The notes: a model not told the origin generated them from the sequence alone. A DNA stretch of 50,675 bases from a virus (IMGVR_UViG_3300047510_001736:1-50675); one strand, 5' to 3'; positions 637-49,384 are shown, counted from the first letter of the stretch. Made by a program: numbers and translations.

Positions 637-790
637 TGTTATACTTTCGTTTGATGTTTGATCCGTCAGGACAACAAAAAAGCCCTGACATCACAAACGG
701 TTGGGTTAGGTCTGTCCTAGCCGTAACCGCTTAGATAGCAGAGCTTCTAGCGGAATCTCTCTGGGAGATTCGGTCTGACATTCGATGTTT

Positions 791-806
791 TGCTAACGAT
801 ATGCCA
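791..806 (-). promoter_or_regulatory. Sigma-54-type -24/-12 promoter for the capsid operon
   Basis: Minus strand TGGCATATCGTTAGCA (GG-N10-GC), intergenic. Preceded by AAGTC, as is the 6568-6583 promoter. Confidence 0.75.
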
Positions 807-825
807 GACTTTATTTTGTGAAGAT

Positions 826-4263: not shown

Positions 4264-6036
4264 TTATTTAGAGGTTACGAATTTGTGATATTGCCCGCGC
4301 AATTGTTCACGCGGCTCAGCCGAATTTAGCGTTTCTTGTGCCGGTCTGTGTGTCATCTGACCCCAGAGGATTGTGAGTTCTGTCTTTTCATCGAAAGTTA
4401 ATGGACCTTTTTTGTTCCTCTCTAAGAGTTCTGCAAAACGGCTTTCGGGTTCTGTTGTGTGCAGAACTTCTTCCTTAAATACTGCCAACGGAACACCATC
4501 AAAACACAACGCCAACGCGTCTGCTCGGTCTGGGGATGAGAGACCACGAGAGCGCATCTCTGCTTTAGGCTCTAAATATGTAACAATGCCTTTAACCGAA
4601 AAGCCGCGCGTGCAAAGTTGTTGGCGAGTGAGATCGTCGTTGACTGTAGGAAAGGCACGATCTTCAATAGCACGCTTAAGACGATTCCAGTTTTCAACGC
4701 CTCTGTTTTTGTAGAAATTCGGGTTGCTTGATCGGGCTTCATTTCGTACCGGCACGACATCATAACCAGCGTTTTGCACGCGCTGCACGATGGGTCGCCC
4801 CAGACCGCCATCGTCAATGCGTACTTCAGAGGGTGTAATGTTGAATTCCTTAATCCAACTGATGATCTGATTATGGAGAATTGCCTCGTTGCGAATCTTT
4901 GTAGTTCGAAGGTGGAGTTTTCCATGGACAAAGAAGTACGCCACAGTTTCGTCGCCGCCGAGCGATAGGTCGATGCCCGCTCGATTGGACAATCCAAACG
5001 TACGAGGTGGATTGTTTGGGTAGTTCTCAAACAAGGTTGATGGAATGAATGCAGCCTCGTCGAGTGAGGTAAACTCAGCCAACACTTGGCTTCGATAAAT
5101 AAGGGATTGCTCGCCATGTTCGTCTTTGAGATGCTCGATGTGTTTGCCGAGAAGATGAGGACAATCGAAGGCTGTGACTCTGCGCCAGTAAAATTCGCCT
5201 ATTTCGAGCTTGTCTGGGAATGTGCGCTTTGCTTTTGCGCAACGCTTGAAAAAATGGCCGGAGTTCTTGCCGGGCGAAGAGATCTCTAGCCAGTAGTTAT
5301 AGCCTGTGAATCGACTAAAGGCTTGGAACATTTCGTCCGTGATGGACTTTGCCTCGTTGATGATCACAGCCATCTCGGCGCCGGGCTCGTCGAACGGGTG
5401 ACGACCTTCGGCTTTACCGGGGTCATCTGTGACGAAGCATTTAATCTCGCTGCCGGTGTCATTACAAGTAATCAAGAACTCAACGATCTCAAAGACCTTG
5501 CGGCCATACGAGACATTGATCTCTTCGCAGATGTTCTTTATGTACTTATACGTCTGATCTTTAAGCTGCTCGTACGAAGATGACGTAATGACGCATCGAG
5601 AACGGACTTTGGAAAGGCAAAACCAGACAGCGAAGGAGCTAATAACGACCTGATCTTTTCCGCTTCCGTTGGCCGCGACAAGATTGTAGTATAGCGGCGT
5701 CTTGTCGGTTGGTCGAGTTTTAGGCAGATCGAGATCATTGATGTCGGTGTATCCTGCAAGTTGAAACAGAGTTTCTGCTTGCCATTTGTAGAGCTTTAAG
5801 TCGGGCCTGTGTGCGAGGAGCAAATCCGCTGGGGTGTCGATTTGATGGGCTATGTAGCGCTTGTTTGTTGGTGTTTGCTCAGTTACAGCAACAGCTTCAG
5901 GCGCCTTGGGCGGAGTCTCAACGGCTTTTTTGCGAGTTTCTTTAGCGCGGGCTTTCTCGGCAGCTTTCTCCGCTTCTAGCGAACGACGGGCTTGAACGAG
6001 TTTGAGTGTATCGGACGAGATTGGGGCTTTGATCAT
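4264..6036 (-). CDS. terL: Terminase large subunit
   Basis: Walker A AANGSGKD, Walker B-like VIINEAK, coupling motif ISSP, RNase H-like nuclease motifs GIDLSLGGD and SPDRADALAL. Confidence 0.92.
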   Translation of the reverse strand: MIKAPISSDTLKLVQARRSLEAEKAAEKARAKETRKKAVETPPKAPEAVAVTEQTPTNKRYIAHQIDTPADLLLAHRPDLKLYKWQAETLFQLAGYTDINDLDLPKTRPTDKTPLYYNLVAANGSGKDQVVISSFAVWFCLSKVRSRCVITSSSYEQLKDQTYKYIKNICEEINVSYGRKVFEIVEFLITCNDTGSEIKCFVTDDPGKAEGRHPFDEPGAEMAVIINEAKSITDEMFQAFSRFTGYNYWLEISSPGKNSGHFFKRCAKAKRTFPDKLEIGEFYWRRVTAFDCPHLLGKHIEHLKDEHGEQSLIYRSQVLAEFTSLDEAAFIPSTLFENYPNNPPRTFGLSNRAGIDLSLGGDETVAYFFVHGKLHLRTTKIRNEAILHNQIISWIKEFNITPSEVRIDDGGLGRPIVQRVQNAGYDVVPVRNEARSSNPNFYKNRGVENWNRLKRAIEDRAFPTVNDDLTRQQLCTRGFSVKGIVTYLEPKAEMRSRGLSSPDRADALALCFDGVPLAVFKEEVLHTTEPESRFAELLERNKKGPLTFDEKTELTILWGQMTHRPAQETLNSAEPREQLRGQYHKFVTSK

Positions 6037-6567: not shown

Positions 6568-6583
6568 AGCTTTTAGAGTGCCA
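6568..6583 (-). promoter_or_regulatory. Sigma-54-type promoter for the packaging/late arm
   Basis: Minus strand TGGCACTCTAAAAGCT (GG-N10-GC); predicted +1 ~6557, ATG at 6554. Confidence 0.8.
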
Positions 6584-6689
6584 GACTTAAATATACTTTT
6601 TGGGTCTAAAAAATCTATAAAATCTGTGAGCGGTCATGTTCGGACATCGACGCGATTTTTCGGGTCTTTCTGCTGGGCGGCTTGTAGTA

Positions 6690-7170
6690 GTACGGTGTGA
6701 TTTATCATTAACGTTAGTGATTTATTAGTGTTAAATCCTTATTGTATTTGAATATGAGTGTATGATCATATGATTGTGTGAGATTATTTAATAACAAAAG
6801 GATTTGACTGTGCTAAACGGTGTGATTTATCAGTGTTAAATCCTTTGTTCGTCAGATAAATATGCTTATTGATAAATTGGGATTTTGGGCTTGTGGTTGT
6901 TTTAATGCAAATAACGTATTTTTGGAAGGTAGGAAGGTAAAATATGATAAATACAATAATAAAAAATAAACGACCTAAGCCAAAAGTCGAATAAGCATAT
7001 TTTATTGTACAACAAAGATTCCTAAATAAGAGTCTTATTGATAAATAACTTTTAAGGATACCTCTTACCTAAGAGCTTTAACGATAAAGTGGCTAAAAAA
7101 AGCCAAAAAGTGGCTCTTTTTTGTCACTTAGGCTTTTTTTGTTTGTAAATAGGCTCTTTTTGACCAGTAT
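6690..7170. repeat. AT-rich non-coding region with direct and inverted repeats (candidate origin or genome-end region)
   Basis: ACGGTGTGATTTATCA at 6692-6707 and 6817-6832. GTGATTTATYAGTGTTAAATCCTT at 6717-6740 and 6822-6845. CTTATTGATAAAT occurs twice. No ORF; lies between the divergent arms. Confidence 0.7.
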
Positions 7171-7239
7171 GGGCAGAAAGTGGTGAGTCACGGAGTGAGG
7201 CGTTAGCGTTAACGTGTGCCATTTTGGCGCGTTTTGGCT

Positions 7240-7255
7240 TGGCATTGGGGTTGCT
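7240..7255 (+). promoter_or_regulatory. Canonical sigma-54 promoter opening the early arm
   Basis: TGGCATTGGGGTTGCT matches the TGGCA-N6-TTGC consensus; predicted +1 ~7266, ATG at 7267. Confidence 0.8.
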
Positions 7256-7266
7256 TCTCTGGGGTC

Positions 7267-7461
7267 ATGAACGCGAAAAGCCGTTTAGACGAAGCTCTCA
7301 CCGAAGCCATCAAAGCCGGAATTCTGTCTCCTTTGGAAGCCTGTGCCATTGAAGCCTGTGTTATTAATATTAATAACACTATCACAAATAAAAAGACTTC
7401 AGATTTTACTATGGTTTACGGTAGTTTAATCACAGACACCATTTCAGATTTAACTAAATAA
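7267..7461 (+). CDS. Small early hypothetical protein (probably leaderless)
   Basis: ATG at 7267 within ORF 7216..7461 (MNAKSRLDEAL..., 64 aa), directly at the predicted start site. Confidence 0.55.
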   Translation: MNAKSRLDEALTEAIKAGILSPLEACAIEACVININNTITNKKTSDFTMVYGSLITDTISDLTK

Positions 7462-7496
7462 CTTCCCTGTCAGTAAACAAATAAACAAATAAAACT

Positions 7497-7835
7497 ATGT
7501 CAGACACTAACACTAACACTAACACTAACACTAACATTTCACGCCGTGTTATTTCAACCGGATCGGCAAAGAGTCACTTTGACTCTGCTGTGTCTCTGAT
7601 TGAGACAATCGGAGAGACAGAAACGGCTCTTTATTGGCAAGGGGAGCGCAATCGTGTCCTGTCGGCCTTTGGCTCTGTCCGCACTAAGTCCTCAGAGGGC
7701 GAAGCGACCGCTAAGGGTGTGGACTTTGGGTCCGCCAGTCTTGCGAAGGTCCTAAAACATCTCAGCACGCCTAAACGGGAAGCCGCTTTGTTGTCTGCGG
7801 CTTGGGCTCTGGCTTCAGCCGTTGCGATGAAGTAA
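7497..7835 (+). CDS. Early hypothetical protein
   Basis: 112 aa; A-rich upstream sequence as in other genes here; N-terminal (TN)n tract. Confidence 0.65.
   Translation: MSDTNTNTNTNTNISRRVISTGSAKSHFDSAVSLIETIGETETALYWQGERNRVLSAFGSVRTKSSEGEATAKGVDFGSASLAKVLKHLSTPKREAALLSAAWALASAVAMK
7504..7536 (+). repeat. Hexamer tandem repeat (ACACTA) x5.5
   Basis: Directly visible; in frame, encodes a Thr-Asn repeat. Confidence 0.95.
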
Positions 7836-8661
7836 GAGACAGAACCGGGGTTTAGTGTTAAACACTGATTTAGCACTAAGCCCAATTCTGTCTCTCGCCT
7901 CTTTTAACATAAAGTCGCCAAGTCTGTCTTGTTCTGTCTTGTGTGTGTTTGCTGATAGGCTTCTCACTCTTTGACAGACCACAAGACAGGCTCTCTCAGA
8001 CGGGAGTCTGGCGCACTGGTTGTCTTGCTTGCTTGTTTTCGTTACAAGTACCAAAGCAAGACAGACCGATCCGGCCCTCTAAAGGCATACGGAGAACGTG
8101 TATTCACTTCTCCCATTTAACTTTAGACAGAACCGGTCCGCTTCCCAATGTCGCCTTTCCTAGGTTATTCAACGTGAGCCGTTACGTTACGGACCAAAGC
8201 GACAAGCAAGCACTTGTTTGATAATGTCGCAGGCACGACACTAGGCACACAAGCGTCCCTTGTGGATTGATAATTGCAAACCCTTTGGGGATTTACTCCC
8301 TCAAAGAGCGCGACCAAATTGCCACAAGCGGACGCATAGTGTCTGGGATTTGACGTATCCTCGACAGTCTTCCTTTATTCCCTTATTCTACACTCTGCCC
8401 GTTATCCTACACCGTCAAATCCTAGACACTATGCGTTCAAATCCTACTGCAGCGTTTGACAAGTCACAAGCAAGTCAAACGCATCTATACGCTTCACAAG
8501 CTTCACGCAAACTCAACAAGCTTGCCATAAAACATACAAGCAAGCGACAAGCAAAACACGACAAGTCATCTTGTCACAAAGCCCGCGCTTGGCGTTGTAA
8601 AGGTACTTTTGCCGTGTCTTCCGCGCAAGTCAAACTCAGCAAGATAGATTGGATCTAAGTT

Positions 8662-9172: not shown

Positions 9173-9394
9173 ATGAACTGTGAAGATTATCCATGCTGCG
9201 GCCACGAGCCGGGCGGCTGTCCTGTTACCGACGAAAACGGTGCAGAGCGTTTCCGTTGCGCCCGTTGCAGCGTTTTGATGCCTCCACAAGCCCGAAGCGC
9301 TGTTTGCGATCGTTGTCACAAGCGCTGGGCGTTTGAAGAATACAGCGACGAAATGCCTGATCGTTATTATGAAGACGGAAGACGAATCTTTTAA
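9173..9394 (+). CDS. Cys-rich putative zinc-binding protein
   Basis: CEDYPCCGH..C plus CxxC...CxxC. Confidence 0.65.
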   Translation: MNCEDYPCCGHEPGGCPVTDENGAERFRCARCSVLMPPQARSAVCDRCHKRWAFEEYSDEMPDRYYEDGRRIF

Positions 9395-9404
9395 TAAAAC
9401 TCCA

Positions 9405-9530
9405 ATGAACGAAGAACCACAAGACGAAAATCCCACGCTTGAAGATCTCCGCGCGGAGATTGGCCGTTATGACGACGAGCCTCTTGATGATGGTCCGGGA
9501 TGGGACTTAGGCCGGGAGGAAATGCTATGA
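9405..9530 (+). CDS. Very acidic small protein (41 aa)
   Basis: ATG at 9405 within ORF 9333..9530; 15 D/E versus 3 R. Confidence 0.55.
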   Translation: MNEEPQDENPTLEDLRAEIGRYDDEPLDDGPGWDLGREEML

Positions 9531-9661
9531 AAAAAAGATCACCAAGTCAAAAAATCTTTCACGCCGTTATTATGATTATTGTCATGCTCGGGGCTTGTTT
9601 CATTCTAGCTCTTAGCACTGTGGCATTTTTCATCAAAAACTTATTCACAAAAAAGAAATGA
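9527..9661 (+). CDS. Small single-TM protein (44 aa)
   Basis: MKKRSPSQKIFHAVIMIIVMLGACFILALSTVAFFIKNLFTKKK; ATGA overlaps on both sides. Confidence 0.65.
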   Translation: MKKRSPSQKIFHAVIMIIVMLGACFILALSTVAFFIKNLFTKKK

Positions 9662-9918
9662 CCAATAGATGTCTCCGTTGTCTCCAAATCATCGACACAG
9701 AGCGCAAGGCATTAGGCTTTGATAGGTGTATCAAATGCGCACCTCAATGGACGTACAAAGGCGCTTTGAACTTTGGCCACAAAACAGGCGGCTCAGTGCA
9801 GCCAATGCATCCTGATGCGTTCAAGGTGCATAAAAGAGTAACCCACAGATCTGCAAAGGGTACAAATGGCAAAGCATTTCAGCAAGGCACAACAAACATA
9901 ACCATTAAAGATGCATGA
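9658..9918 (+). CDS. DksA/TraR-type C4 zinc-finger protein
   Basis: CLRC-LQII-DTERKA-LGFDR-CIKC resembles CxxCxxxIxxxRxxAxxxxxxCxxC; no coiled-coil acidic tip. Confidence 0.55.
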   Translation: MTNRCLRCLQIIDTERKALGFDRCIKCAPQWTYKGALNFGHKTGGSVQPMHPDAFKVHKRVTHRSAKGTNGKAFQQGTTNITIKDA

Positions 9919-10088
9919 TCATCATAATCCCCTCACATATCAAAGGCTTTTACAGCTATTGTCTCGCGCCTGTATCGAATACGTTAGACATTCATGTCTA
10001 CATTCAACGTATCCTAAGTGACAACGTGCTCAGTGTAGACTTCAACCTAACCGCCGAAGAACTCGGTCAGATTCTCGGCGGTAACTAA
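9915..10088 (+). CDS. Small hypothetical protein (57 aa)
   Basis: MIIIIPSHIKGFYSYCLAP...GQILGGN; ATGA overlap with the upstream gene; followed by a terminator. Confidence 0.5.
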   Translation: MIIIIPSHIKGFYSYCLAPVSNTLDIHVYIQRILSDNVLSVDFNLTAEELGQILGGN

Positions 10089-10103: not shown

Positions 10104-10130
10104 AAGCCCTTTACGGAGGGCTTCTCTTTG
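10104..10130 (+). terminator. Probable rho-independent terminator
   Basis: AAGCCCT-TTACGG-AGGGCTT then CTCTTT. Confidence 0.6.
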
Positions 10131-10158
10131 TGGAGCTTTTTTACACCAAGATAAAACT

Positions 10159-10174: not shown

Positions 10175-10278
10175 CTATCGCTTTGCCGCCCGTTGACGGC
10201 GTGCGAAATGTAAGTGGTCGCGCGACCTCAAACATCCCAAACTCAAGTCAACAAGTTAGAAATAAAAACATAAACATC

Positions 10279-10923
10279 ATGAGCACCAAGAACCTCGAAC
10301 TCGTCGCCTCCTTTGCTGGATCTGTCTTCCAGTCTGATGCCGACGGCAATCCTCTGTTCGTCACCTCTGAGCGTCACGTCCGCAAGACTGCCAAGAGCGC
10401 AGAGCGCACTGTCTCCTTCCAGAAGCCCGTTCTGGCCGTGAGCGATCTGCAATACTACATCAAGCGCGGCGAAGCCTTGGCTGAGATCGCGACCGAGCAC
10501 GTCACGAAGGTGAAGAATGAAGATGGCTCTGTGACCGAGACCAAGCGCGTCTCTAATGCGCTGAGCGATCTCGTCGCCGAGCACCTGCTCGACATCAGTG
10601 AAGACGCTTCTGAGGCCTATCTCAGCAAGGGCAACACTCCGGACTACTTCGCCGCCTTCATCTACGGTGTCAGCGCCGATCGTGAGACTGAGAAGTCTGT
10701 CCTCAAGAAGATCGAGTCGATCCGAAGCGAGATCGGCTCGATCGTGTTCGCTCTGGCTGGCGAGTGGACCGAAGACACTGCTCGCTCGCTGGGCGTGAGC
10801 GACAAGGACGCTGCGATCGCCAAGCAGTCCAACCTCATCGCCTCGCTGGCTCAGCTTCTCGCCAAGGCCAACGAGCTCAGCGCCGCGAAGGCCAAGCGTG
10901 AAGCCAAGAAGGCGAAGGTCTAA
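10279..10923 (+). CDS. Hypothetical protein, probably highly expressed (214 aa)
   Basis: Likely start MSTKNLELVAS at 10279; capsid-like codon bias; own promoter and terminator; Ala/Lys-rich C-terminus. Confidence 0.8.
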   Translation: MSTKNLELVASFAGSVFQSDADGNPLFVTSERHVRKTAKSAERTVSFQKPVLAVSDLQYYIKRGEALAEIATEHVTKVKNEDGSVTETKRVSNALSDLVAEHLLDISEDASEAYLSKGNTPDYFAAFIYGVSADRETEKSVLKKIESIRSEIGSIVFALAGEWTEDTARSLGVSDKDAAIAKQSNLIASLAQLLAKANELSAAKAKREAKKAKV

Positions 10924-10971
10924 TAGTTTTACTTCCTCACGAAGTAATCTGCAATACAACTAAATCACAAG

Positions 10972-11010
10972 GAGCCTCTGTGGGAGCAATCTCACAGAGG
11001 CTTTTTCTTT
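10972..11010 (+). terminator. Rho-independent terminator
   Basis: AGCCTCTGTGGGA-GCAA-TCTCACAGAGGCT then TTTTCTTTT. Confidence 0.85.
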
Positions 11011-11062
11011 TAGGTCTTTTTCAAAGTGTTCCACATTTTGGCATTCAACAGATGCCAAAACT

Positions 11063-11078
11063 TGGCACACTAGAAGCT
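11063..11078 (+). promoter_or_regulatory. Sigma-54-type promoter of phage rpoN (ARAAGCT class)
   Basis: AAAACT-TGGCACACTAGAAGCT (GG-N10-GC), ending 34 nt before the rpoN ATG. Confidence 0.8.
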
Positions 11079-11112
11079 CCTTTGCATAGGCTAACAACCA
11101 CCACTAGCCAAC

Positions 11113-12402
11113 ATGAAGTTTTCTCTTAACGTACAACAGACGCAAAGTCTGATCCTCTCGCCGCAGTTGCAGCAGTCGTTAGCTCTACTGCAAGCTCCTC
11201 TCTGTGAACTCCATAACCTGATGGAGTCTTTCACGCAGGATAATCCTTGCGTTGAACTCCTCGATAGAGACACGCCCGAAGAAGAGATCTTGTTTCGCAA
11301 TGACAAAGCAGAACTTCCACAAGACATGCAGTGGACTAGTTCTTACAGCCTGCCCGCCCGAGAGGAATATCCGCTGGAGAATAATCCCTCACGCGATGAG
11401 ACACTCGAAGAGTATCTTCTGAGAGAGTTGACAATAGCGCAACACGACACGAGCATCATACATCTGCTCGACGAGAGGGGATTCTACACGGGCGATCTTG
11501 ATGCACTAAGCACACGGCAAAGAGATGCTCTGCGTTTCATAAGAACACTAGAACCACGCGGACTAGGCGCTTTGGGATTAGCAGACTGCTTGTGCTTGCA
11601 GCTAGATGAGAACTCACTAGCCTACAAAATCCTCCAACAAGACGAAGACCTCTTTACTCGAAGACAAATCCCCCTTCTCTCTAAGAAATATAACGAAACA
11701 TTCACAACCATAGAGAATCTTTACAAATCTCTAAGCAAACTAAACTACAATCCAGCCTCCGAATTCTCTTCTTCAACGCACACACCTAAAGACGCAGAGA
11801 TCTTTCTCGATAAAGATCTCAATATCACGATCCCGTCCGAGCGTCTTCCGATCTACAAGATCAATCAGACTTATCTCAACTATCTCGACAAGCTCTCCGC
11901 GGCGGACAGAGAATACATCCGAGATCGCGTGAAGCAAGGTAAGTTTCTGATTCGTTCAATCACTCAGCGCCAGTCGACTTTGTTTAGTGTCACAAAAGCG
12001 ATCGTTGAGTACCAACAAGACTTCTTCCGCAGCGGAAACATTAAAGATCTCAAGCCTCTCATCATGGCACAGATCGCCACCGTGTGTGAGATCCATGAGA
12101 CTACCGTGTCAAGAGCAGTGCATAACAAATACATCAGCACGCCGCACGGCACATACGAATTAAGATTCTTCTTCACCTCAGCCATTATCAACCACAATGA
12201 AAACACCATGCAGTCAAACCTAAGCATAAAGAATCAGATCGCAGAGATCATCTCGCGCGAGGACAAATCTCGCCCACTCAGCGACGAGGACATCGTAGTT
12301 CTTCTTAAGAATACAATCGCTCGCCGCACAATCGCAAAATACAGAGCCGAACTAGGCATTCAACCGTCTCACCTCCGTAAAGTCTATGCCTCCTCAAAAT
12401 GA
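11113..12402 (+). CDS. rpoN: RNA polymerase sigma-54 factor (phage-encoded RpoN)
   Basis: Region I QQTQSLILSPQLQQSLALLQAP; core-binding motifs LDERGFY and LEPRGLGA..LADCLCLQL; HTH LKPL..QIA..CEIHETTVSRAVHNKYISTPHG; PLSD; RpoN box ARRTIAKYR. Confidence 0.97.
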   Translation: MKFSLNVQQTQSLILSPQLQQSLALLQAPLCELHNLMESFTQDNPCVELLDRDTPEEEILFRNDKAELPQDMQWTSSYSLPAREEYPLENNPSRDETLEEYLLRELTIAQHDTSIIHLLDERGFYTGDLDALSTRQRDALRFIRTLEPRGLGALGLADCLCLQLDENSLAYKILQQDEDLFTRRQIPLLSKKYNETFTTIENLYKSLSKLNYNPASEFSSSTHTPKDAEIFLDKDLNITIPSERLPIYKINQTYLNYLDKLSAADREYIRDRVKQGKFLIRSITQRQSTLFSVTKAIVEYQQDFFRSGNIKDLKPLIMAQIATVCEIHETTVSRAVHNKYISTPHGTYELRFFFTSAIINHNENTMQSNLSIKNQIAEIISREDKSRPLSDEDIVVLLKNTIARRTIAKYRAELGIQPSHLRKVYASSK

Positions 12403-13120
12403 AAACGACCAAAAAGAAAACCAAATCACAAGCGAATCCCTCTGGGGATTGCTCTTTCCAGCCTGCTCTTGTCATGTCGATACAGAGCGCGGCCACTTCA
12501 TCCGCAGAACTGCAGGAAATAATCTTGCCCATGCGATTGTTGCTACAAATGAAACAGCGGACTGGGTCAAAGCTCACTGCGCGGGTGAGCATATCCATAT
12601 ACAGAGAATCGACGAAGATGGATTGTCCTATAGCGTCATATGGGACTCTACAGAATGGAACCTTTCGGATGAAAGAAGAAGAACACTTCGTGCAAACCAC
12701 CTTGCCTCTGACATATCCTTCCTCCACAAAAAAGCGGAAGAGCTGCGGATCGAAATGATCGCCGACGCCTTGTCGAAGGCGAAGCTCTTCACCAAACAGA
12801 AAGCATTCGAAGTCGCCGCCGCGATCACATCGCAGGGCGAAGAAGTTTATCTTAATAAATCAAGGCAGTTGAATGATGCCTTAAAAGGCGCGTTCAACAA
12901 TATCAACTGTTACTTTCCCATCGAAGAAGTTCTCCGTATTGTAGACACTCGCGGTCTGTTAGAAAAGATTAGTCCTGTAAATATTCAACAAGAAACTCAA
13001 CCACAACAAGATGAACAAAAACCTACAGAAGAAATGTCAGAAGGAAGCAGCACGCCTCAAAGCCAAGATGGACAAGGCTACTACCAAGAATGTAGTCTTA
13101 CGCCAACGGCTGGAGGATGA
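12386..13120 (+). CDS. Hypothetical protein
   Basis: 244-aa ORF covering the gap after rpoN; overlaps its neighbours at both ends. Confidence 0.6.
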   Translation: MPPQNENDQKENQITSESLWGLLFPACSCHVDTERGHFIRRTAGNNLAHAIVATNETADWVKAHCAGEHIHIQRIDEDGLSYSVIWDSTEWNLSDERRRTLRANHLASDISFLHKKAEELRIEMIADALSKAKLFTKQKAFEVAAAITSQGEEVYLNKSRQLNDALKGAFNNINCYFPIEEVLRIVDTRGLLEKISPVNIQQETQPQQDEQKPTEEMSEGSSTPQSQDGQGYYQECSLTPTAGG

Positions 13121-13316
13121 AATGCTTGCGGTGCAAAAGAAACTTACACCCCTGCTTAACAAGAGAGATGCTATCAACCGCTCATTCGCACACCTTGACA
13201 AACCAACCGCAGAGAGTATCGTCTTCGGCGAGTACATCTCTCTCATCTCCCGCACTCCACAAGCCTACGGTTTCAAGAACGCTGAGGAAGTGATCGCGAA
13301 GTTGATGGACCTATAA
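13011..13316 (+). CDS. Hypothetical basic coiled-coil protein
   Basis: 101 aa; ends 4 nt before the helicase ATG. Confidence 0.6.
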   Translation: MNKNLQKKCQKEAARLKAKMDKATTKNVVLRQRLEDEMLAVQKKLTPLLNKRDAINRSFAHLDKPTAESIVFGEYISLISRTPQAYGFKNAEEVIAKLMDL

Positions 13317-13320
13317 GACT

Positions 13321-15492
13321 ATGAACATATTCTCTACGCCAGCCGGAGTAAAGAAAGCCGCGCCAGCAGAAGCTACTTACACAAGCAAGGAAGATCGCCT
13401 TCAACAGACCGCTCTCACCACCGCGCGAGCGCAAGCGAAGAAGCTGACAGATCTCTACCGCAAGGAGCCTTATGAGTGGGACTTCTTACAGCGTGAGTTG
13501 AATCTCACCACCATTCCATCCATCAAGCTAGACTATGCAACCCTCTTAGGATTTCTACAGGGCTGGGTTAATCAAGCCCCTCTAAGGCAACAAAAGGAAG
13601 CTCTTCGCCTCGCAGAGGAAGCAGCCTTGCGGGAGAAAAGAACCTACAGCACCATCGACATCAAGCTCCCCAACGGCCTCGACTTCAAGCCGCAGCAGAA
13701 GAAAGCTATCGCGGCCTTGCTCGACGTGCTGTACAAAGACAACCTTAACGGCGCACTTGTCCCACTCGGCACCGGCAAAGGTAAGAGCTGGATCGCCGCC
13801 GGTCTCGCACTATGGCTACAGAAACATGACCCGCAAAAGTTCTGTAACTTTCTCGGCTTGTTTCCGCCTATCCTAATCATCACCAAGAAGTCTGTCGTCC
13901 TTGACTTCCGAGACACACTGAAGAAGCTGGGCCTTGAAAGCGTCGGCCTCGCTGTCGACGTGTGGTCATACAACGAAGTCTTCTCCACGAAGAACAAGAA
14001 CTTCTTCAAATCCGAAACCACGGAGATCTTCGGTCAAGCTACAAACGTGATACGCTTCAACCTGCCCGAGCAAGCGGCGCCCAAGCTTATCATCCTCGAC
14101 GAGTGTCAGGAGATTAAGAAAGAGAAGTCTAAGAGAACTAAATATCTCGAAGCCTTCTTGCAATTCCCATCTATCAAGTGGGTCTTCACCTCAGCCACGC
14201 CCGCAGTCACGGTGTGGGACACAATGTTCATGACTCTCGCCATGCGCTTGCCTTACGGAGCAAGACCTCTCACGAGAGAGACATTCCCAGAGTTCGCTCG
14301 CACTCTCACTCTCGGCGCAGATCCCCGCTCGGCGAATGCAGCCGCACTCGAACGCTGGGCCGGTGCGCTTGGCGACAGACTAGTCAAGCCGCCGGGCGAT
14401 CCTCAAAAGGTGAAGGCGCTCAACAAAGTCAAGCTCTTTGAGATCACTGATCCAGCGAATCAGAACATGCTCAAGAATGCGATGAAGAATTATCTTGAGG
14501 CTATCGAGCGCACTGGTCGTTCGATAGATCCACAAGGTCAAGTCATGGTCGCCTTCATGGTCATGGCCCGAGCGGCCGAGCTTGCTACTGTAGACACATG
14601 GGTCGCAGACGCGATCGCCGCTCATCAACAAGGCTATGCGCCAGTCATTGCAATCCGCTTCACCGAGACTCTCAAGGAGCTAGTCATGAAGCTCTGTGAT
14701 AGTGAATACTTCCGCAGTAAGAATCTCAACAAACAAAAGATCTCCCTCATCTGGGGCGGCAACAAAGAGATCAAGCCCGAGGAACTTCTCCCAGAAACCC
14801 GCGCGGCAGAGATCGCTGCGAAGATGGGCATGTGGATTCTTGACAATCCGCACGAGGCAAGAAAGCCTAAAGCAGATGACATTGGGATAACCAAAGAGGA
14901 GTTCCGAGCCTTCCACAAAGGCATCAAGTACACAAGCGAGAGAATCTTCCGAGAGATGACAAAGGATGCATTCGCCGCGCGCAATGAGAAGCTTAGAGAG
15001 ATGAAGCTTCACAATCAGAACCAGAAAGAAAGACATGAGAACGTGCAAGCGTTCCTCAATGGAGAGACTGAGTTCTGTATCTATACCCTCTCAAGCGGTG
15101 GTACGGGTATCTCACTGGATCATCGCTATCAACACACACGACCACGCAAAGTCGCATCGACTATGACCTATTGGGCTGAGGAGTTTGCTCAAGCTCTCGG
15201 TCGTTGTGTCCGTATCACAACCCTCACCGACACACTGCAAGAGATCTATGTTCCCGAGGGCACAATCCTCAGTGATCACATGGCTCCTAAGCTTGCGAGA
15301 AAACTCAAATCCGTAGACGCAATCGGCTCATCGAACGTCGATCTGGCTGGCGAACTTGAGAAGGCACTCAAGGATAAGGCGGCGGTCGTGAGACTTACCG
15401 CCGAAGATCTCACCGCCTCTGAATCCTCCGGCGTCGTTGAGGTTGAGGAGGAAGAAGATGATGAGGAGGAACTTGTAGAGTCTGCCAGTTAA
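13321..15492 (+). CDS. Superfamily 2 helicase
   Basis: Q motif KPQQ, motif I GTGKGKS, II ILDECQ, III TSATP, V SGGTGISL, VI QALGRCVR; acidic tail. Confidence 0.9.
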   Translation: MNIFSTPAGVKKAAPAEATYTSKEDRLQQTALTTARAQAKKLTDLYRKEPYEWDFLQRELNLTTIPSIKLDYATLLGFLQGWVNQAPLRQQKEALRLAEEAALREKRTYSTIDIKLPNGLDFKPQQKKAIAALLDVLYKDNLNGALVPLGTGKGKSWIAAGLALWLQKHDPQKFCNFLGLFPPILIITKKSVVLDFRDTLKKLGLESVGLAVDVWSYNEVFSTKNKNFFKSETTEIFGQATNVIRFNLPEQAAPKLIILDECQEIKKEKSKRTKYLEAFLQFPSIKWVFTSATPAVTVWDTMFMTLAMRLPYGARPLTRETFPEFARTLTLGADPRSANAAALERWAGALGDRLVKPPGDPQKVKALNKVKLFEITDPANQNMLKNAMKNYLEAIERTGRSIDPQGQVMVAFMVMARAAELATVDTWVADAIAAHQQGYAPVIAIRFTETLKELVMKLCDSEYFRSKNLNKQKISLIWGGNKEIKPEELLPETRAAEIAAKMGMWILDNPHEARKPKADDIGITKEEFRAFHKGIKYTSERIFREMTKDAFAARNEKLREMKLHNQNQKERHENVQAFLNGETEFCIYTLSSGGTGISLDHRYQHTRPRKVASTMTYWAEEFAQALGRCVRITTLTDTLQEIYVPEGTILSDHMAPKLARKLKSVDAIGSSNVDLAGELEKALKDKAAVVRLTAEDLTASESSGVVEVEEEEDDEEELVESAS

Positions 15493-15540
15493 TTTAGTCA
15501 TGCCTAAATCATATCACCTCACAACAACAAGTCAACAAAA

Positions 15541-15765
15541 ATGTCCGACAAAGATCCTTTCCGCGTGCGGAATCCCGGATATCTCAGCATGTATTTGTTG
15601 GACTATCTGGTGGGCCAAGCTCTCACTGGGCTGTTGGCTAATCCAAACAACAAGGAAACCTTACAGCGTAATGCAGAGATCGCATTCGAACAGGCTGAAG
15701 CTGTGATCGAGTTGCGTGAACAAAGACTGGAGAAACAAAAACAAAAACAAAATGAACGCGTATGA
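15541..15765 (+). CDS. Small hypothetical phage protein
   Basis: 74 aa; LLDYLVGQALTGLLANP pattern typical of a common small phage protein family. Confidence 0.7.
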   Translation: MSDKDPFRVRNPGYLSMYLLDYLVGQALTGLLANPNNKETLQRNAEIAFEQAEAVIELREQRLEKQKQKQNERV

Positions 15766-16030
15766 ATGGAAACCAACAGGCGGCCCGAAGTGCCCGGGCT
15801 GTGGTGGAGAAGAGATAATAAATCAATACAAGCATAAGCAATGGCGCTGCGGATCTCACTGGTGTCATGAAGAGACAAAAGACTTCAAGCAGTCAACAGT
15901 CTGCCAGCGTTATGAACTAGATACCTTACACGCAAAGATAAAACAACTATCAAACACATTCGAATCATATCAGAAAGAAATCAAACGACAAGAAGCATTC
16001 AAATATACACCACCTGCAGGAAAGGATTAA
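15752..16030 (+). CDS. Zinc-ribbon plus coiled-coil protein
   Basis: CPGCGG...WRCGS..C; likely start MNAYEWK. Confidence 0.6.
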   Translation: MNAYEWKPTGGPKCPGCGGEEIINQYKHKQWRCGSHWCHEETKDFKQSTVCQRYELDTLHAKIKQLSNTFESYQKEIKRQEAFKYTPPAGKD

Positions 16031-16033
16031 CAT

Positions 16034-16336
16034 ATGTCACATCAACGTAAATCAACGCACATCACCCGTAAGAACTACTTCCTCACCTACGAGGAGAAGA
16101 TGCACATCCGCGAGTACATCCACGCTAACCCGCATCTAACTCGCGTGCAAGCGGGCGAGTACTTCGGAGTCTCGCGGGGCACTATCTCAAACATCAACAA
16201 GATGCCTTATCACAAGGAACACTATGATAAGATGATCTTTGAGTTGACTAATCTGAAGAATCAGATGGCTTCGAGGATTGCTGCGATGGACTTGAAGATC
16301 ATGCAACTACAAACCAAACTAGCAAAGTATGAGTAA
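16034..16336 (+). CDS. Helix-turn-helix DNA-binding protein
   Basis: LTRVQAGEYFGVSRGTISNI HTH followed by a coiled coil. Confidence 0.75.
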   Translation: MSHQRKSTHITRKNYFLTYEEKMHIREYIHANPHLTRVQAGEYFGVSRGTISNINKMPYHKEHYDKMIFELTNLKNQMASRIAAMDLKIMQLQTKLAKYE

Positions 16337-16502
16337 GTTTCATCAACGCGGTGATCAGTACGTCAGCAAGTATAAACTTGGATCACTCGACGAAGAGTAT
16401 CTTACGCGTGAAGAGATGGCCTCTACGCGCAAAGCTATCATGAAGTATAAGCTAAGAGATCCCGGGCCTTCAATATATTCAAAGAGAAAGAAGAAGAAAT
16501 GA
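16329..16502 (+). CDS. Small basic hypothetical protein (57 aa)
   Basis: MSKFHQRGDQYVSKYK...KRKKKK; overlaps both neighbours in operon fashion. Confidence 0.5.
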   Translation: MSKFHQRGDQYVSKYKLGSLDEEYLTREEMASTRKAIMKYKLRDPGPSIYSKRKKKK

Positions 16503-16687
16503 AAGGTAAGAGAGTAAGAAGTCTGGAAGCGTTAATCTTCCTTGCCCAACTAAAGCGCAGCGTCCTCATGCCACCGCGCATGAGCCAACGTCCTTGGCCC
16601 GCTGCATTTGTAATCAACATGAATCTTCTACACGTCTATCATCTACTGCGAGAAGGTATCTACATCTACGAACCTAAAACAAAATGA
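16499..16687 (+). CDS. Small hypothetical protein
   Basis: 62 aa; ATGA overlap with the activator gene. Confidence 0.55.
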   Translation: MKGKRVRSLEALIFLAQLKRSVLMPPRMSQRPWPAAFVINMNLLHVYHLLREGIYIYEPKTK

Positions 16688-17523
16688 ACATCCACGCAAA
16701 CGTCCTTAACACCGCCGCGGCCGACAGCTTCCTTGATAACATCCGCAAAGATGTGTTGAAGATCACAGGCGATGCACTGAAGGAGAACTCCATTCAATCA
16801 ATCGCATCGTGCTATGCCACGCAAGATCCTCTCACCAAGAGGATGCTCACCGCGGCGATAACCTACGCCGAGGAGAGCTTGCAGAAATACAATGTCCTGA
16901 TTGAGGGGCCTTCTGGTACTGGTAAAGAACTCATCGCAAAGATCCTAGCACACAAACGGAAGCCTCTCAAAGCTATGAACATGGCTGGCTTGACTGATAC
17001 ACTTTTTCAGTCAGAGCTATTCGGCTACATGCCCGGCGCTTTCACCGGTGCTAAGTCTCGCGGGGATGTGGGCTTCCTAAGAGCAGTCGGCAAGGGCACT
17101 GCTTTCCTCGACGAGATAGGCGAGTTACCGCTGGCGCATCAAGCTAAGCTCTTAAGAGTCTTGCAGGATAAAACCGTATTGCCCGTCGGGGCTGTTGATC
17201 CCGTGCCTATTCAATGTCGCTTCGTTTTTGCGACGAATCGAGATCTGTTGAAGATGGTAAAGGAAGGCTCGTTTAGGGAAGACCTATACTTCCGCATTAA
17301 CGAACTCGGTCTGAAGACTCGCTCGTTGTATGATCGCGGGGTTCAGGAAATCCGTTGTGTCGCCAGCGCTATCATCGCCGAAGAAAACTGGACGCCTTTG
17401 GGGGAAAGGGAGCACTTCGGCGACGAGACATTCTCGTTTGGGAATGTCCGGGCGTTGCGTAATCTATTACTCAAGCGTGAACTCGGAGAGATTGAATTGC
17501 CGGAATATGATAAAGGAGAATAA
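16684..17523 (+). CDS. Sigma-54-dependent activator (bEBP AAA+ domain only)
   Basis: VLIEGPSGTGKE (Walker A), SELFGYMPGAFTGA, FLDEIGE (Walker B), QAKLLRVLQ, RFVFATNRDL, FREDLYFRIN, GNVRALRN. No receiver/GAF domain and no C-terminal HTH. Confidence 0.96.
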   Translation: MNIHANVLNTAAADSFLDNIRKDVLKITGDALKENSIQSIASCYATQDPLTKRMLTAAITYAEESLQKYNVLIEGPSGTGKELIAKILAHKRKPLKAMNMAGLTDTLFQSELFGYMPGAFTGAKSRGDVGFLRAVGKGTAFLDEIGELPLAHQAKLLRVLQDKTVLPVGAVDPVPIQCRFVFATNRDLLKMVKEGSFREDLYFRINELGLKTRSLYDRGVQEIRCVASAIIAEENWTPLGEREHFGDETFSFGNVRALRNLLLKRELGEIELPEYDKGE

Positions 17524-17527
17524 AGAT

Positions 17528-17857
17528 ATGGACAACCAACAATTATCAGACAAGTTCAGCCTCGACGGCATCGAACCCTACATGCTTCAAGTATCAAACC
17601 TGAACAAGCCACTCCTCACAATCCACGCCGACGGCCGTATTACCGTGTCCGAAGATCTCAAACCCACTGAGACAGCGGCCGAGGTGTTGAAGATCATGCA
17701 GGATATGTGGTTGCATGATCAGCAGGTTGTGAAGATAAAGGAGTTAAAAGAAAAGATCAAGCGGCTGGAGGAGACAGGAGATGAAATCGTAATCAATTAC
17801 GTTAACAGCCTGTCGGCCTTTGAACTGTGGCGCAAAGCCAAGGAGGCCAAACCATGA
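17528..17857 (+). CDS. Hypothetical protein
   Basis: Likely start MDNQQLS just after the activator stop; coiled-coil C-terminus. Confidence 0.6.
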   Translation: MDNQQLSDKFSLDGIEPYMLQVSNLNKPLLTIHADGRITVSEDLKPTETAAEVLKIMQDMWLHDQQVVKIKELKEKIKRLEETGDEIVINYVNSLSAFELWRKAKEAKP

Positions 17858-18051
17858 CCCCAGAAATCAAACTCCACGAACTCCCGCCCGATGATCCGCG
17901 AAGAAATACATTCCTCAAAGAACTCAACGTGCGTATTCGTTGCCGCCATACCAAAGCCACACGCGACCCGCGAACGTGGAAGATAAAGAATAATACCTAT
18001 AACCACCTTGCCGCAACGTGGCAAAATAACTTTGACTTTGTAGTCCTATGA
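17854..18051 (+). CDS. Small hypothetical protein
   Basis: Start MTPEIKL with ATGA overlaps. Confidence 0.6.
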   Translation: MTPEIKLHELPPDDPRRNTFLKELNVRIRCRHTKATRDPRTWKIKNNTYNHLAATWQNNFDFVVL

Positions 18052-22974: not shown

Positions 22975-23289
22975 ATGTGGACATTTGAAGCAGGCTTAGC
23001 TTGGTGCTGTCAGGCAAATACACGGCTCGTCGACCATAACCTACATACGGCTCTAACCGGAAGCGTTCTATTCAAAGGATCTTCTGGGAAAGATCTTGAC
23101 GTTATTATTTATCCTCATAAGACTAGTTGTCCGAGTCCTTTGATTCATGAAATATGCAACATGCTGAGTCTTAGATTTGTACAGGATCGCACAGGCGCGC
23201 ATAATAGATATTCTGAAAAAGACTCCAAGAGAGTCTACCACACAGAAACCTTCGACGGCAAACGTATTGACCTCTTTCTCCTCCAATGA
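22975..23289 (+). CDS. Minimal nucleotidyltransferase (Pol beta superfamily)-like protein
   Basis: Likely start MWTFEAG; hG[GS] motif LTGSV, DxD motif KDLDV, third acid in RIDLF. Confidence 0.6.
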   Translation: MWTFEAGLAWCCQANTRLVDHNLHTALTGSVLFKGSSGKDLDVIIYPHKTSCPSPLIHEICNMLSLRFVQDRTGAHNRYSEKDSKRVYHTETFDGKRIDLFLLQ

Positions 23290-24716
23290 TAGCCCTCGTT
23301 CTGCATGGACCCTCGCGCTTTGATAAAGAAAACAACGGAATACTTCTTGGACCCGCCGGAGATTTTGTTCGTGGTGTGCTTGCTGGTCATAGCATTGATC
23401 TGGACGATCCGAACGCTGTCTTCGTCACCTTCGCCGACGACTTCTTCAAAGGCGCAAACAAACCAAGTGGAATCAAGAAGATCATTTTCGCCGGAGCTAA
23501 AAGCCTTGATTATCTACCAGCAGCTAAAGGAAAAACCCTAGACGCCTTTCGCGGCGTTGTTTACACCTCACCCACAAAGACGCAATACATCGTAACCTAT
23601 TGGCCCCAAGATTGTGTGGACGCTTGGGCCGTCGAAGACTCTCTTGAAGGCGAAGGCGACAATGAAGACATCCTCGACAAAGACGACGGCAAGAGCACAA
23701 GCCCCACTAAAAGATCCAATTACAGTTTTTGGTTTGCACAAGACATCAAGAAACTCCTAACATATGACCCCGAAAAAGTTCAACCTGAACCCCAAACCGT
23801 CTCTTGCCAAAGAGCCGATGAGGCAACAAGAGTCTTTAACTACGACGGACCAATCTTCTTCGACATCGAGACTCACCCCAAAACCAACACCCTCACCTGC
23901 TTGGCCATTGCGTGTGGCGAAAGTCCTGTGTATTCTGTGCCTGTGTATGATTGGGGTGGCAATCTTAATGTCGGTGTGGTTTTCTTTGCTCGCCTCGTTA
24001 GAGAGATGAAGAAGCGTAGAGTGGTTATTCACAACGCCCTCTTCGATCTCTGCTTTCTCGCCGCCTTCTACAAGATCCCATTCGGCACAGATATCTACGA
24101 TACGATGGTCGCTGGGCATCGAATCTTTCCCGAGGCCGAGAAGTCTCTAGCCCATCAAGCAACGATCTACTCCAACAGACCCTTTCATAAAGATGAAGCA
24201 GGGAACTTTGATCCTCGCAATCGAGCACAATTTGAGCAGCTCCGCGCTTACAACGTTAAAGACGTTATTGTGCTCCGAGAGATTTACCTCGGTCAGCTTG
24301 AAGTCTGCAGACACGACAGCGGACTTCAAGATTCAGTCGATCAAGCTAGTAAATCCCTCGCAGACTATGCATTCATGTCACTGCACGGAATGCACTTCGA
24401 CCCTGTTAAAAGAGGTGCTATCGTCCGACGCTGTGAAGAACGCTATAAACAACTCGCCCGGGTCCTCAAAATCCTCGTAGGCTTCGACCTCAACCCCGGC
24501 AGCCCGGATCAAGTAGTGAATTATCTGCACACTCAGATGCGCTACAAGGCCGAGAAGACAACAGACAAAGGCGCGCCGTCGGTCGCGGGTGACGCTTTAT
24601 ATAAGATCAAACTCAAGCATCCGAAGAACGTCGCCATCGACGTAATCTTCGAGATGCGTCGTATGGTTAAGCTGAAAGGTATGTTAGGATTTCAACAATG
24701 GATTTGGGAATATTAA
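23286..24716 (+). CDS. polA: DNA polymerase A, N-terminal subunit (degenerate UDG-like + 3'-5' exonuclease + thumb)
   Basis: Exo I FFDIET, Exo II HNALFDL, DTMV, Exo III YNVKDV; GMHFD and LNPGSPDQV thumb motif; N-terminus resembles family-4 UDG. Confidence 0.88.
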   Translation: MIALVLHGPSRFDKENNGILLGPAGDFVRGVLAGHSIDLDDPNAVFVTFADDFFKGANKPSGIKKIIFAGAKSLDYLPAAKGKTLDAFRGVVYTSPTKTQYIVTYWPQDCVDAWAVEDSLEGEGDNEDILDKDDGKSTSPTKRSNYSFWFAQDIKKLLTYDPEKVQPEPQTVSCQRADEATRVFNYDGPIFFDIETHPKTNTLTCLAIACGESPVYSVPVYDWGGNLNVGVVFFARLVREMKKRRVVIHNALFDLCFLAAFYKIPFGTDIYDTMVAGHRIFPEAEKSLAHQATIYSNRPFHKDEAGNFDPRNRAQFEQLRAYNVKDVIVLREIYLGQLEVCRHDSGLQDSVDQASKSLADYAFMSLHGMHFDPVKRGAIVRRCEERYKQLARVLKILVGFDLNPGSPDQVVNYLHTQMRYKAEKTTDKGAPSVAGDALYKIKLKHPKNVAIDVIFEMRRMVKLKGMLGFQQWIWEY

Positions 24717-24720
24717 GTTT

Positions 24721-25569
24721 ATGCAAAATACAAAAATGAAAGACTCTTCAATCGCCGCATCCTTTATGCGCGCTGGGATATACGACCCAAGTAAGTTTGG
24801 CCACGTCGTCTCGATGCCCAAGCTCAACGGCCTGAGATGCATGTACATTCCCGGCCAAGGGTTTTACTCACGCGACGGGAAGCGGTGGAATGATGCTGTC
24901 CTTGCGCACATCATTCCGCCCACAACAGACTACATACTCGACGGCGAGTTGTATTGTCATGGTATGAGTCTGCAGAGGATCAATAGTAATGTCGGCGTTA
25001 ATCGAATTGAACCCGGTCCGGATGCGGGATTTGTTGGATTCTGGGCATTCGATATTGTCGAGCCAAAGTATAATGCTCTTACGCGCATGCTCTTACTCGA
25101 TAAGATCTTTGCCGACAACAAAGGCAAGACGGCTAATATACGCTCAATTCATTGGTCTATCTGCAAAACGCGCATCGAATTGGATATGTGCTATCATGAC
25201 TATCTTGACGAAGACTACGAAGGTCAAATGCTCAAGAGCGTCTTCGGTTCCTATATGCCACAAGGCGAGAAGGAGCGCTCGACGATGAATCTCCAGAAGC
25301 GCAAAGCGTTTCTCGACGCTGAGTTCTTGTGCATTGGTCGCGTCGTATCTGACGAAGGCAAGTGCAAGGGTAAGCTTGGCGCCCTTGTTTTCGTTACTAA
25401 TAAAGGAGTGAGGTTCGAAGTCGGAACGGGCTTTACGGACGAAGAAAGAGAAGAATACATCAAGGAAGACTATGACTTCCGAAAGAAAGCAACGATCAAA
25501 TATCTCAACCTCACCGACGATGGCCGCCCATTCAATGCATCGTTCGTAGGCTGGCGCGATGACGTTTAA
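24721..25569 (+). CDS. ATP-dependent DNA ligase
   Basis: Motif I KLNGLR, III LDGELY, IIIa FDIV, IV EGQMLK, V KRK; OB domain VGTGFTDEER. Confidence 0.92.
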   Translation: MQNTKMKDSSIAASFMRAGIYDPSKFGHVVSMPKLNGLRCMYIPGQGFYSRDGKRWNDAVLAHIIPPTTDYILDGELYCHGMSLQRINSNVGVNRIEPGPDAGFVGFWAFDIVEPKYNALTRMLLLDKIFADNKGKTANIRSIHWSICKTRIELDMCYHDYLDEDYEGQMLKSVFGSYMPQGEKERSTMNLQKRKAFLDAEFLCIGRVVSDEGKCKGKLGALVFVTNKGVRFEVGTGFTDEEREEYIKEDYDFRKKATIKYLNLTDDGRPFNASFVGWRDDV

Positions 25570-25580
25570 TCTCTAAGAAT

Positions 25581-26123: not shown

Positions 26124-26125
26124 CT

Positions 26126-49320: not shown

Positions 49321-49332
49321 ATCCTTGAATTT

Positions 49333-49348: not shown

Positions 49349-49384
49349 AATCATAGATTGGGTTGCTCTTTATTCTCCTTAAAG

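Follow-up and report, generated by a model that had tools for sequence, protein, structure and literature searches.

Can a phage bring its own sigma-54 into the cell, together with the ATPase that opens sigma-54 promoters? The question is raised by IMGVR_UViG_3300047510_001736, a whole IMG/VR virus record of 50,675 bp that was assembled from a metagenome, is rated 100% complete and has linear ends; the full record was analysed and is called the window below. Between positions 11,063 and 17,523 it carries a gene for sigma-54 (rpoN), a gene for an AAA+ activator of the bacterial enhancer-binding protein (bEBP) type, and a sigma-54-type promoter-like site in front of them. Sigma-54 promoters stay tightly closed and need ATP for opening, by a mechanism that is separate from that of sigma-70. 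As far as we know and could search, the phage sigma factors described so far belong to the sigma-70 family, among them T4 gp55 and SPO1 gp28 and gp33/34, which serve middle or late genes. Our analysis indicated that this phage quite probably transcribes most of its operons, namely the replication block, the operon of rpoN, helicase and activator, and the long packaging and structural arm, from sigma-54-type promoters by means of its own sigma-54 and AAA+ activator. The phage-borne pair with its matching promoter network is real and appears to be new.

The phage sigma-54 gene

The product of rpoN (429 aa) was identified by Pfam, by TIGR02395 and by alignment to cellular sigma-54s. Region I matched Sigma54_AID (PF00309; 6.6e-11, 42.3 bits against a cut-off of 23.8) at residues 4-49, the core-binding domain matched Sigma54_CBD (PF04963; 4.1e-21, 76 bits) at residues 89-254, and the DNA-binding domain matched Sigma54_DBD (PF04552; 3.2e-49, 167 bits) at residues 267-423, the last two also above their cut-offs. 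Against the TIGR02395 rpoN_sigma equivalog model the protein scored 292.8 bits, with a cut-off of 277.35. The alignment showed that the RpoN box (ARRTIAKYR, residues 403-411) and the invariant residues of the helix-turn-helix (HTH) are retained and that the LQ-rich motif of Region I can be aligned with that of cellular sigma-54s; Region II is short, with almost none of it present. The ratio of nonsynonymous to synonymous divergence (dN/dS) was 0.06-0.11, which means purifying selection, at a synonymous divergence (dS) of 0.5-2.0 that is near saturation. With these domains the phage RpoN would be expected to attach to core RNA polymerase and to form closed complexes on promoters of the -24/-12 type.

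None of the PHROG families matched the phage RpoN, and among 1.84 billion representatives its cluster was isolated: the score dropped from 685 bits to 311 bits for P0121, all further scores were 236 bits or less, and identity to any other cluster was at most 44%. P0121 is a second short sigma-54 of 431 aa on an 8.2-kb contig, 44% identical and of the same architecture; a search of IMG/VR did not find it, and it may come from a different phage lineage. Among named cellular proteins the closest is the sigma-54 of Limisphaera (Verrucomicrobiota), with 51% identity across the DNA-binding domain and a near-identical Region I.

The phage activator

The second gene encodes a protein of 279 aa that matched Sigma54_activat (PF00158) at 3.7e-49 and 167 bits, with Walker A at residues 75-82, GAFTGA at 118-123, Walker B at 141-147 and the sensor II motif GNVR at 253-256. 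GAFTGA was invariant in 4/4 aligned phage activators. The AAA+ domains of the NtrC family, ZraR, FleQ and PspF were the best matches among solved structures (1e-26 to 1e-35). Thus the two genes that the preliminary description had called intact, rpoN at 11113-12402 and the GAFTGA activator at 16684-17523, are intact in all their domains and motifs. The activator is also under purifying selection (dN/dS 0.05-0.08), and it matched phrog_7998, a family of unassigned function, at 1.5e-28.

The alignment to the AAA+ domains of solved bEBPs stops at residue 262 of 279, and the protein ends 17 aa past sensor II, so the activator has no C-terminal DNA-binding HTH. Searches with Pfam and NCBIfam found no N-terminal receiver or sensor domain and matched the AAA+ region alone, from residue 15 to 60 onwards. 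Lacking both a DNA-binding and a sensory domain, the activator would act from solution and be active whenever it is present. Bacterial bEBPs without a DNA-binding domain include FleT (Rhodobacter), CtcC (Chlamydia) and FlgR (Helicobacter), which need no enhancer and activate the sigma-54 holoenzyme from solution. Two of them, CtcC and FlgR, are response regulators of cells and possess receiver domains, whereas in the phage activator about 45 residues precede the AAA+ domain and none follow it.

Conservation of the gene pair and of the promoter-like sites

The phage family is represented by 21 IMG/VR loci that cover both gene places (15 + 6) and whose RpoN is 74-98% identical; four further loci with the activator end before the rpoN place. 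rpoN and activator were found together and in the same order in 21/21 family loci (15/15 + 6/6); a survey of their co-occurrence in viral databases had been proposed in the preliminary description.

Nine sites of the -24/-12 type (TTGGCAY-N5-WWGCT) lie ahead of phage transcription units, all co-oriented with the genes downstream (Table 1). Eight GG-N10-GC promoter candidates on both arms had been named before, without coordinates; nine co-oriented sites were counted here, but the bare GG-N10-GC pattern is not above chance and is meaningless alone, with 119 matches in the 21.3-kb relative L006. The strict form TGGCNY-N5-AAGC occurred 5 times in the window against 0.98 expected, a number that 0/100 shuffles reached, and the control with wrong spacing (one base too far apart) gave 16 against 13.2 expected. 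The original observation is confirmed in this narrower form: nothing beyond the strict motif and its conservation rises above chance. The -12 element of the phage sites is mostly A[AG]GCT and not TTGCW, and the degenerate canonical form was matched exactly by 7240-7255 only.

Conservation at orthologous places is the strongest evidence that the sites may serve as promoters. GG-N10-GC was kept in 70/72 orthologous cases over five sites, plus 10/10 at two more, while the spacers, the -14 position and the flanks varied in the same alignments. Moreover, the five complete relatives contained 29 matches to GGCNY-N5-AAGCT and 2 matches to the reversed-pattern control. At four sites (6568, 7240, 27132 and 49334) the distance from GC to ATG is only 12-14 nt, so if transcription starts at the usual sigma-54 position, the mRNAs of these four sites would be near-leaderless. 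The assignment of the system to middle and late transcription had been an inference and is not supported as it was put; a sigma-54-type promoter (7240) also precedes the gene that opens the + arm.

Some details of these regions were seen besides. In L012 (9900-9960) the -24 element of P_rpoN is duplicated in tandem, with two TTGGCAT copies about 19 nt apart. In the window, a palindrome TTGGCAT-N7-ATGCCAA (11037-11061), kept in 8/9 aligned relatives, abuts the upstream side of the -24 element of P_rpoN; a dimeric regulator could use it as its operator, or its halves could be two -24-like decoys. A palindromic ATGTCCGAACATG at 6635-6647, about 55 nt upstream of the late promoter, has a core that was kept in 8/8 aligned relatives; it is a possible regulator site, though the activator has no DNA-binding domain.

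Operon structure and proposed mechanism

No terminator-like site was found on the + strand between 11078 and 16684, so rpoN, the 244-aa gene, the helicase, the small genes and the activator look like one operon behind P_rpoN. Upstream of this promoter lies an intrinsic-terminator-like hairpin (Table 1), which is conserved with compensatory changes in 9/9 aligned sequences and is also present in the more distant relatives G007 and L070 described below.

By the mechanism that we propose, the minimal phage sigma-54 (Region I, core-binding and DNA-binding domains, almost no Region II) would load onto the host core RNA polymerase, and the holoenzyme would form closed complexes at TTGGCAY-N5-WWGCT. 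The AAA+-only activator with its GAFTGA loop would spend ATP on the remodelling of Region I and thereby open the promoters. Since a sigma-54-type promoter stands in front of both rpoN and the activator, their expression would form a positive feedback, i.e. a self-amplifying loop. The first molecules of this loop could come from terminator read-through, an unrecognised promoter, host factors or packaged protein, which are all possibilities.

RNA-seq contigs from a library of one freshwater sample, which stem from relatives, cover rpoN at 11623-12336 and much of the + arm, with DNA carry-over possible. They are the assembled contigs of one run, in which starts and ends are not readable and the gaps at 6668-8001 and 9336-10002 have no meaning.

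A sister clade without rpoN

A scan based on the helicase gave more distant relatives, whose helicase is 64-65% identical and whose activator is 53-61% identical, and in which no rpoN was seen. One of them, G007, is a complete genome of 49,848 bp with direct terminal repeats. It is collinear with the window, and 36/66 window proteins matched it at 29-76% identity, RpoN not among them; a search of G007 for Sigma54_DBD, with E values up to 0.1 admitted, found none. The activator of G007, too, consists of the AAA+ domain alone and has GAFTGA, and sigma-54-type sites stand at five orthologous places (Table 1), one of them at the exact place of P_rpoN after the conserved terminator. A counterpart of P_27132 was not found in G007. 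In L070, which also has an orthologue of P_22237, the slot that rpoN would take after the P_rpoN promoter is filled by an unrelated ORF of about 130 aa.

The slot behind P_rpoN thus varies between relatives, and rpoN looks like an insertion into this variable slot behind one promoter, although it may instead have been lost in the other clade. The shared core of the group is the phage activator with the sigma-54 promoters, and the activator, not the sigma factor, is the constant part. Since the sister clade keeps both without rpoN, host sigma-54 presumably serves these promoters there. The term "self-contained" in the preliminary description must be restricted accordingly: sigma-54, activator and promoters are real and intact, but the sister clade keeps the activator and five promoters without rpoN.

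In evolutionary terms, the core of phage activator and sigma-54 promoters would work with host sigma-54 in the rpoN-less clade, and rpoN would have been added in the present clade in the variable slot, where it would supplement or replace host sigma-54. A bolder version, which we put forward only tentatively and would not yet bet on, is that this is the first viral sigma-54, captured into the slot behind P_rpoN by a lineage that was already hijacking the host sigma-54 polymerase with an always-active AAA+ activator that does not bind DNA, that a sigma-70-independent and self-amplifying circuit drives essentially every operon, with near-leaderless late mRNAs, and that the sister clade represents the earlier step.

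Evidence against and alternative explanations

Several results weigh against transcription by the phage's own sigma-54. The canonical TGGCAC-N5-TTGCW with two mismatches or fewer was not enriched in the window (18 vs 27.0 expected), nor were loose patterns (11 vs 9.07 and 8 vs 5.01 expected). In an unbiased dyad search over 24 upstream segments, TGG-N10-GCT (5 occurrences in 5 segments, p 3.9e-5) ranked 12, behind AT-rich dyads, and was non-significant after correction for about 28,672 tests. Among the single sites, P_21110 has lost GG-N10-GC in L029 and L016, and P_7240 could be aligned in only 3 of the 11 sequences offered. A search for sigma-70-type early promoters gave 23 matches vs 16.0 expected, none of them positioned to drive the + arm, and rpoN and activator are both downstream of a strong terminator and a sigma-54-type promoter, which poses a problem for the ignition of the loop. 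Finally, the rpoN-less sister clade means that similar promoters need no phage sigma-54, and the same -12 range in that clade leaves a private promoter specificity of the phage sigma-54 (AAGCT vs TTGC) unsupported, so this idea was rejected. The canonical consensus and the loose patterns were dropped as promoter evidence for lack of enrichment, and weight was put only on the strict variant and its conservation. Promoters of the Bacteroidota type (-33/-7) were also tried, and the one match was inside a gene.

The alternative that survives best is that host sigma-54 reads the phage promoters and the phage activator switches them on, while the phage sigma-54 is accessory and does not drive the programme; it might increase the dose, widen the host range or redirect the host sigma-54 regulon. 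This would account for the activator and orthologous promoters of G007 and L070, which lack rpoN, for -12 and -24 elements that are alike in both clades, and for rpoN evolving faster than its neighbours (74-98% amino acid identity vs 91-99% for the activator). We nevertheless consider it unlikely, because rpoN is intact in 21/21 family loci under the purifying selection given above, is the leading gene of the operon that it shares with the activator, right after a conserved phage promoter, and has kept Region I, the core-binding domain and the RpoN box. A sigma-54 so maintained likely acts on the only sigma-54 sites known nearby, and transcription by the phage sigma-54 with its activator is the reading that we prefer.

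It is far less probable that both genes are cargo that reprograms host physiology only, with promoter-like sites that are coincidental or bound by something else. The chance-level counts of the bare, loose and canonical patterns in the window and the dyad test after correction would fit such cargo, but coincidental sites would hardly keep GG-N10-GC in 70/72 orthologous cases despite a dS of about 1-2, be co-oriented with genes in all nine cases, be conserved in a more distant clade as well, or outnumber the reversed-pattern control by 29 to 2. That the record is not a phage, or is a chimera joining a host rpoN and activator to phage DNA, is scarcely credible: it is a metagenome assembly with linear ends, and the GenBank "phage" records that match rpoN or activator are mostly host-contaminated, but the same gene order stands in 21 independent IMG/VR contigs, several of them 99-100% complete and one with direct terminal repeats, the phage sigma-54 is so remote from other clusters (44% identity or less), and phage genes lie on both flanks.

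Other polymerases, related loci and host

Sigma-70 region 2 (PF04542) had no match in the window, and the control matched in 10 genomes. The T7-like RNA polymerase model (PF00940) also had no match in the window, but it had none in the control genomes either, so that this negative carries little weight. Pfam found no RNA polymerase family in the 10 large late-arm ORFs tested. The claim that the phage has no RNA polymerase of its own therefore stands for what is detectable, but the 847-aa ORF and parts of the 1816-aa ORF are unassigned and might encode a very divergent one.

Among GenBank phages, blastn of window 11000-18000 gave no match, and tblastn of RpoN and activator gave only records that look host-contaminated or bacterial drafts, all with less than 60% identity. 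Seven other IMG/VR loci with sigma-54 (L033-L039) are 25-36% identical and have no activator within their available flanks. In the three loci checked (L033, L035 and L037) the neighbours are integrase or host-like genes, with L033 about 2 kb from a phage-type integrase and others beside host-like genes, e.g. a glycosyl hydrolase or an NPP1-family gene.

There are weak hints to a host in the Planctomycetes-Verrucomicrobia-Chlamydiae (PVC) group or Verrucomicrobiota, namely the Limisphaera sigma-54, the terminases of Akkermansia phages and a Phycisphaerales binning. The last of these, a 4.3-kb relative contig binned with a Phycisphaerales metagenome-assembled genome (MAG), was treated as weak evidence for such a host because nothing else in the first 20 kb of the window matched the MAG and the MAG sigma-54 is 27% identical. 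A Shine-Dalgarno core was present at only 5/66 gene starts, and over the 20 nt that precede the starts A is frequent and G scarce (36% A, 15% G), which points to a host that initiates translation largely without Shine-Dalgarno pairing. Words sampled from the window occur in freshwater-labelled runs, of which four near-complete holders may be the source sample. The virus is a complete, uncultivated freshwater phage and probably virulent.

Comparison with known systems

A full-text literature search for phage-encoded sigma-54 found none (supplementary gene lists might mention such genes), in agreement with the preliminary description, which had known of no characterised phage with this strategy. 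The phage system works like the sigma-70-family factors of T4 and SPO1, in that a phage-made sigma would redirect host core RNA polymerase to phage promoters, but it is not a member of them: the sigma class is different, Sigma70_r2 is absent from the window, and the ATPase is also supplied by the phage. With bacterial sigma-54 and its bEBPs (E. coli PspF, Aquifex NtrC1) it shares the three domains, the RpoN box, the GAFTGA AAA+ core and the GG-N10-GC geometry. Unlike these it is virus-encoded, with a sigma of 429 aa that has little Region II, an activator without sensory or DNA-binding domain, and a -12 element that departs from the TTGCW of bacterial promoters.

The main text of the survey "Phage-Encoded Sigma Factors Alter Bacterial Dormancy" (PMC9429907) does not contain the terms sigma-54 or rpoN. 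Pseudomonas phage YuA reportedly relies on two sigma factors of its host, sigma-70 and sigma-54 (PMC10914365, citing Ceyssens et al. 2008). According to that report its genome has a sigma-54-like promoter, which is the situation that we suppose for the rpoN-less sister clade, but the sigma-54 is that of the host, and no sigma-54 or activator of phage origin is mentioned in the passage on YuA. Htm (Gp204) of an E. coli phage is described in a preprint (bioRxiv 10.64898/2026.10.06.757011) as an AAA+ protein that is structurally bEBP-like and is proposed to act on sigma-54 RNA polymerase. Like the activator studied here it is, by this description, a phage bEBP-like AAA+ protein without a C-terminal DNA-binding domain; it differs in having no GAFTGA and an altered Walker B, whereas in the present activator GAFTGA is there and Walker B is of the standard form, and the same phage also has a sigma-54 and promoters that match.

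If our interpretation is right, a phage that brings sigma-54 and its ATPase would represent a new route to take over host RNA polymerase, and its two proteins would make up a compact natural switch for gene expression, together with nine natural promoters whose sequences are graded. The sister clades with and without rpoN would be a natural experiment on why a virus stops relying on a host sigma factor.

Genome organization and minor features

The ends of the record are arbitrary, because the counterparts of window 400-1200 and 49000-49800 are about 1.2 kb apart in five complete relatives, which is the distance expected on joining the two ends of the window. The genes form two divergent arms. 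The + arm, from about 7267 to 29032, contains small genes, rpoN, the helicase, the activator, a denV-like glycosylase and an exonuclease, and further on a Sak4-like gene, a split family-A DNA polymerase, a ligase and a primase. The - arm is tightly packed and runs from 6554 down through the record ends to 29383, with the large terminase, a tail-fibre-like gene, a glycosyltransferase, a beta-helix protein and a 1816-aa polyvalent protein. No tRNA was found in the window, and no Rfam family reached its gathering score there.

Table 1 Candidate promoters, genes and terminators of the window, and sigma-54-type sites of G007
Feature	Position	Strand	Sequence	Context	GG-N10-GC kept in relatives
P_791	791..806	-	TGGCAT-N5-TTAGCA	In a 190-nt gap inside the late arm	5/5 complete relatives
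P_late	6568..6583	-	TGGCAC-N5-AAGCT	GC to ATG 14 nt, first late gene (6554); heads the - arm (173-aa gene, large terminase and following genes)	10/10; spacer and -14 vary
P_7240	7240..7255	+	TGGCAT-N5-TTGCT	GC to ATG 12 nt; ATG 7267 is the first + arm gene	3/3 alignable relatives
P_10159	10159..10174	+	TGGCAT-N5-AAGCT	Before 215-aa gene 10276-10923; conserved leader of about 100 nt	16/16
P_rpoN	11063..11078	+	TGGCAC-N5-AAGCT	34 nt before rpoN ATG; heads the operon of rpoN, 12386 gene, helicase and, further on, activator	20/20
P_21110	21110..21125	+	TGGCCC-N5-AAGCT	Within the exonuclease gene, at its 3' end; Sak4-like gene downstream	14/16
P_22237	22237..22252	+	TGGCCC-N5-AAGCT	Followed by conserved CCCTCCCATTTG; ahead of the DNA polymerase/ligase block	10/10
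P_27132	27132..27147	+	CGGCCC-N5-AAGCT	GC to ATG 12 nt (ATG 27159), ahead of primase	Site of same sequence type in 5/5 complete relatives
P_49334	49334..49349	-	TGGCAA-N5-CAGCT	GC to ATG 14 nt (ATG 49320), tail-fibre-like gene	5/5 complete relatives; spacer varies
rpoN (sigma-54, 429 aa)	11113..12402	+			
244-aa gene, function unassigned	12386..13120	+		Start overlaps the rpoN end by 17 nt	
SF2 helicase (ResIII/DEAD)	13321..15492	+		Same operon, between rpoN and activator	
AAA+-only activator (bEBP, 279 aa)	16684..17523	+			
Large terminase	4264..6036	-		Second gene behind P_late; best GenBank phage matches are Akkermansia phage terminases (26-30% identity)	
Terminator-like hairpins with T run	10104..10135	+		Just upstream of P_10159	
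Intrinsic-terminator-like hairpin, 17-bp stem and T run	10969..11006	+		Between the 10276 gene and P_rpoN	
G007, P_late orthologue			TGGCAT-N5-TTGCA (canonical)	Late-arm site	
G007, P_791 place	46235	+			
G007, P_10159 orthologue	34359	-		Before 10276-gene homologue	
G007, P_22237 orthologue				Before 22302-gene homologue	
G007, exact P_rpoN place				After the conserved terminator; then directly the 12386-gene homologue	

The leader between P_10159 and the 215-aa gene (10175-10275) contains a hairpin at 10216-10227 with compensatory changes in relatives. Another hairpin with compensatory changes between relatives lies at 753-771 (- strand) just downstream of P_791, possibly as a structured leader or as a site where late-arm transcripts are processed. 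Two separate ORFs (23286-24716 and 26114-27118) encode the split family-A DNA polymerase, with an ATP-dependent ligase and a ferredoxin-like gene between them (window 23286-27118), and the same order was found in G007. The 1816-aa polyvalent protein (29383-34833, - strand) has an ART-PolyVal ADP-ribosyltransferase domain at residues 857-1016; a sequence search of PDB gave no meaningful match for this ORF, and in the Atlas it lies nearest to clusters of phage large polyvalent proteins. The protein is probably part of the virion and ejected from it.

The stretch 7850-8660 has few convincing ORFs and contains an inverted repeat (8332-8436) whose 24-nt arms show 96% complementarity and are separated by 57 nt. 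Iteron-like direct repeats were found at 6692-6848, in the AT-rich stretch without genes that separates the + arm from the - arm, one of 16 nt at 6692/6817 and one of 24 nt at 6717/6822, which may be an origin or an operator array.

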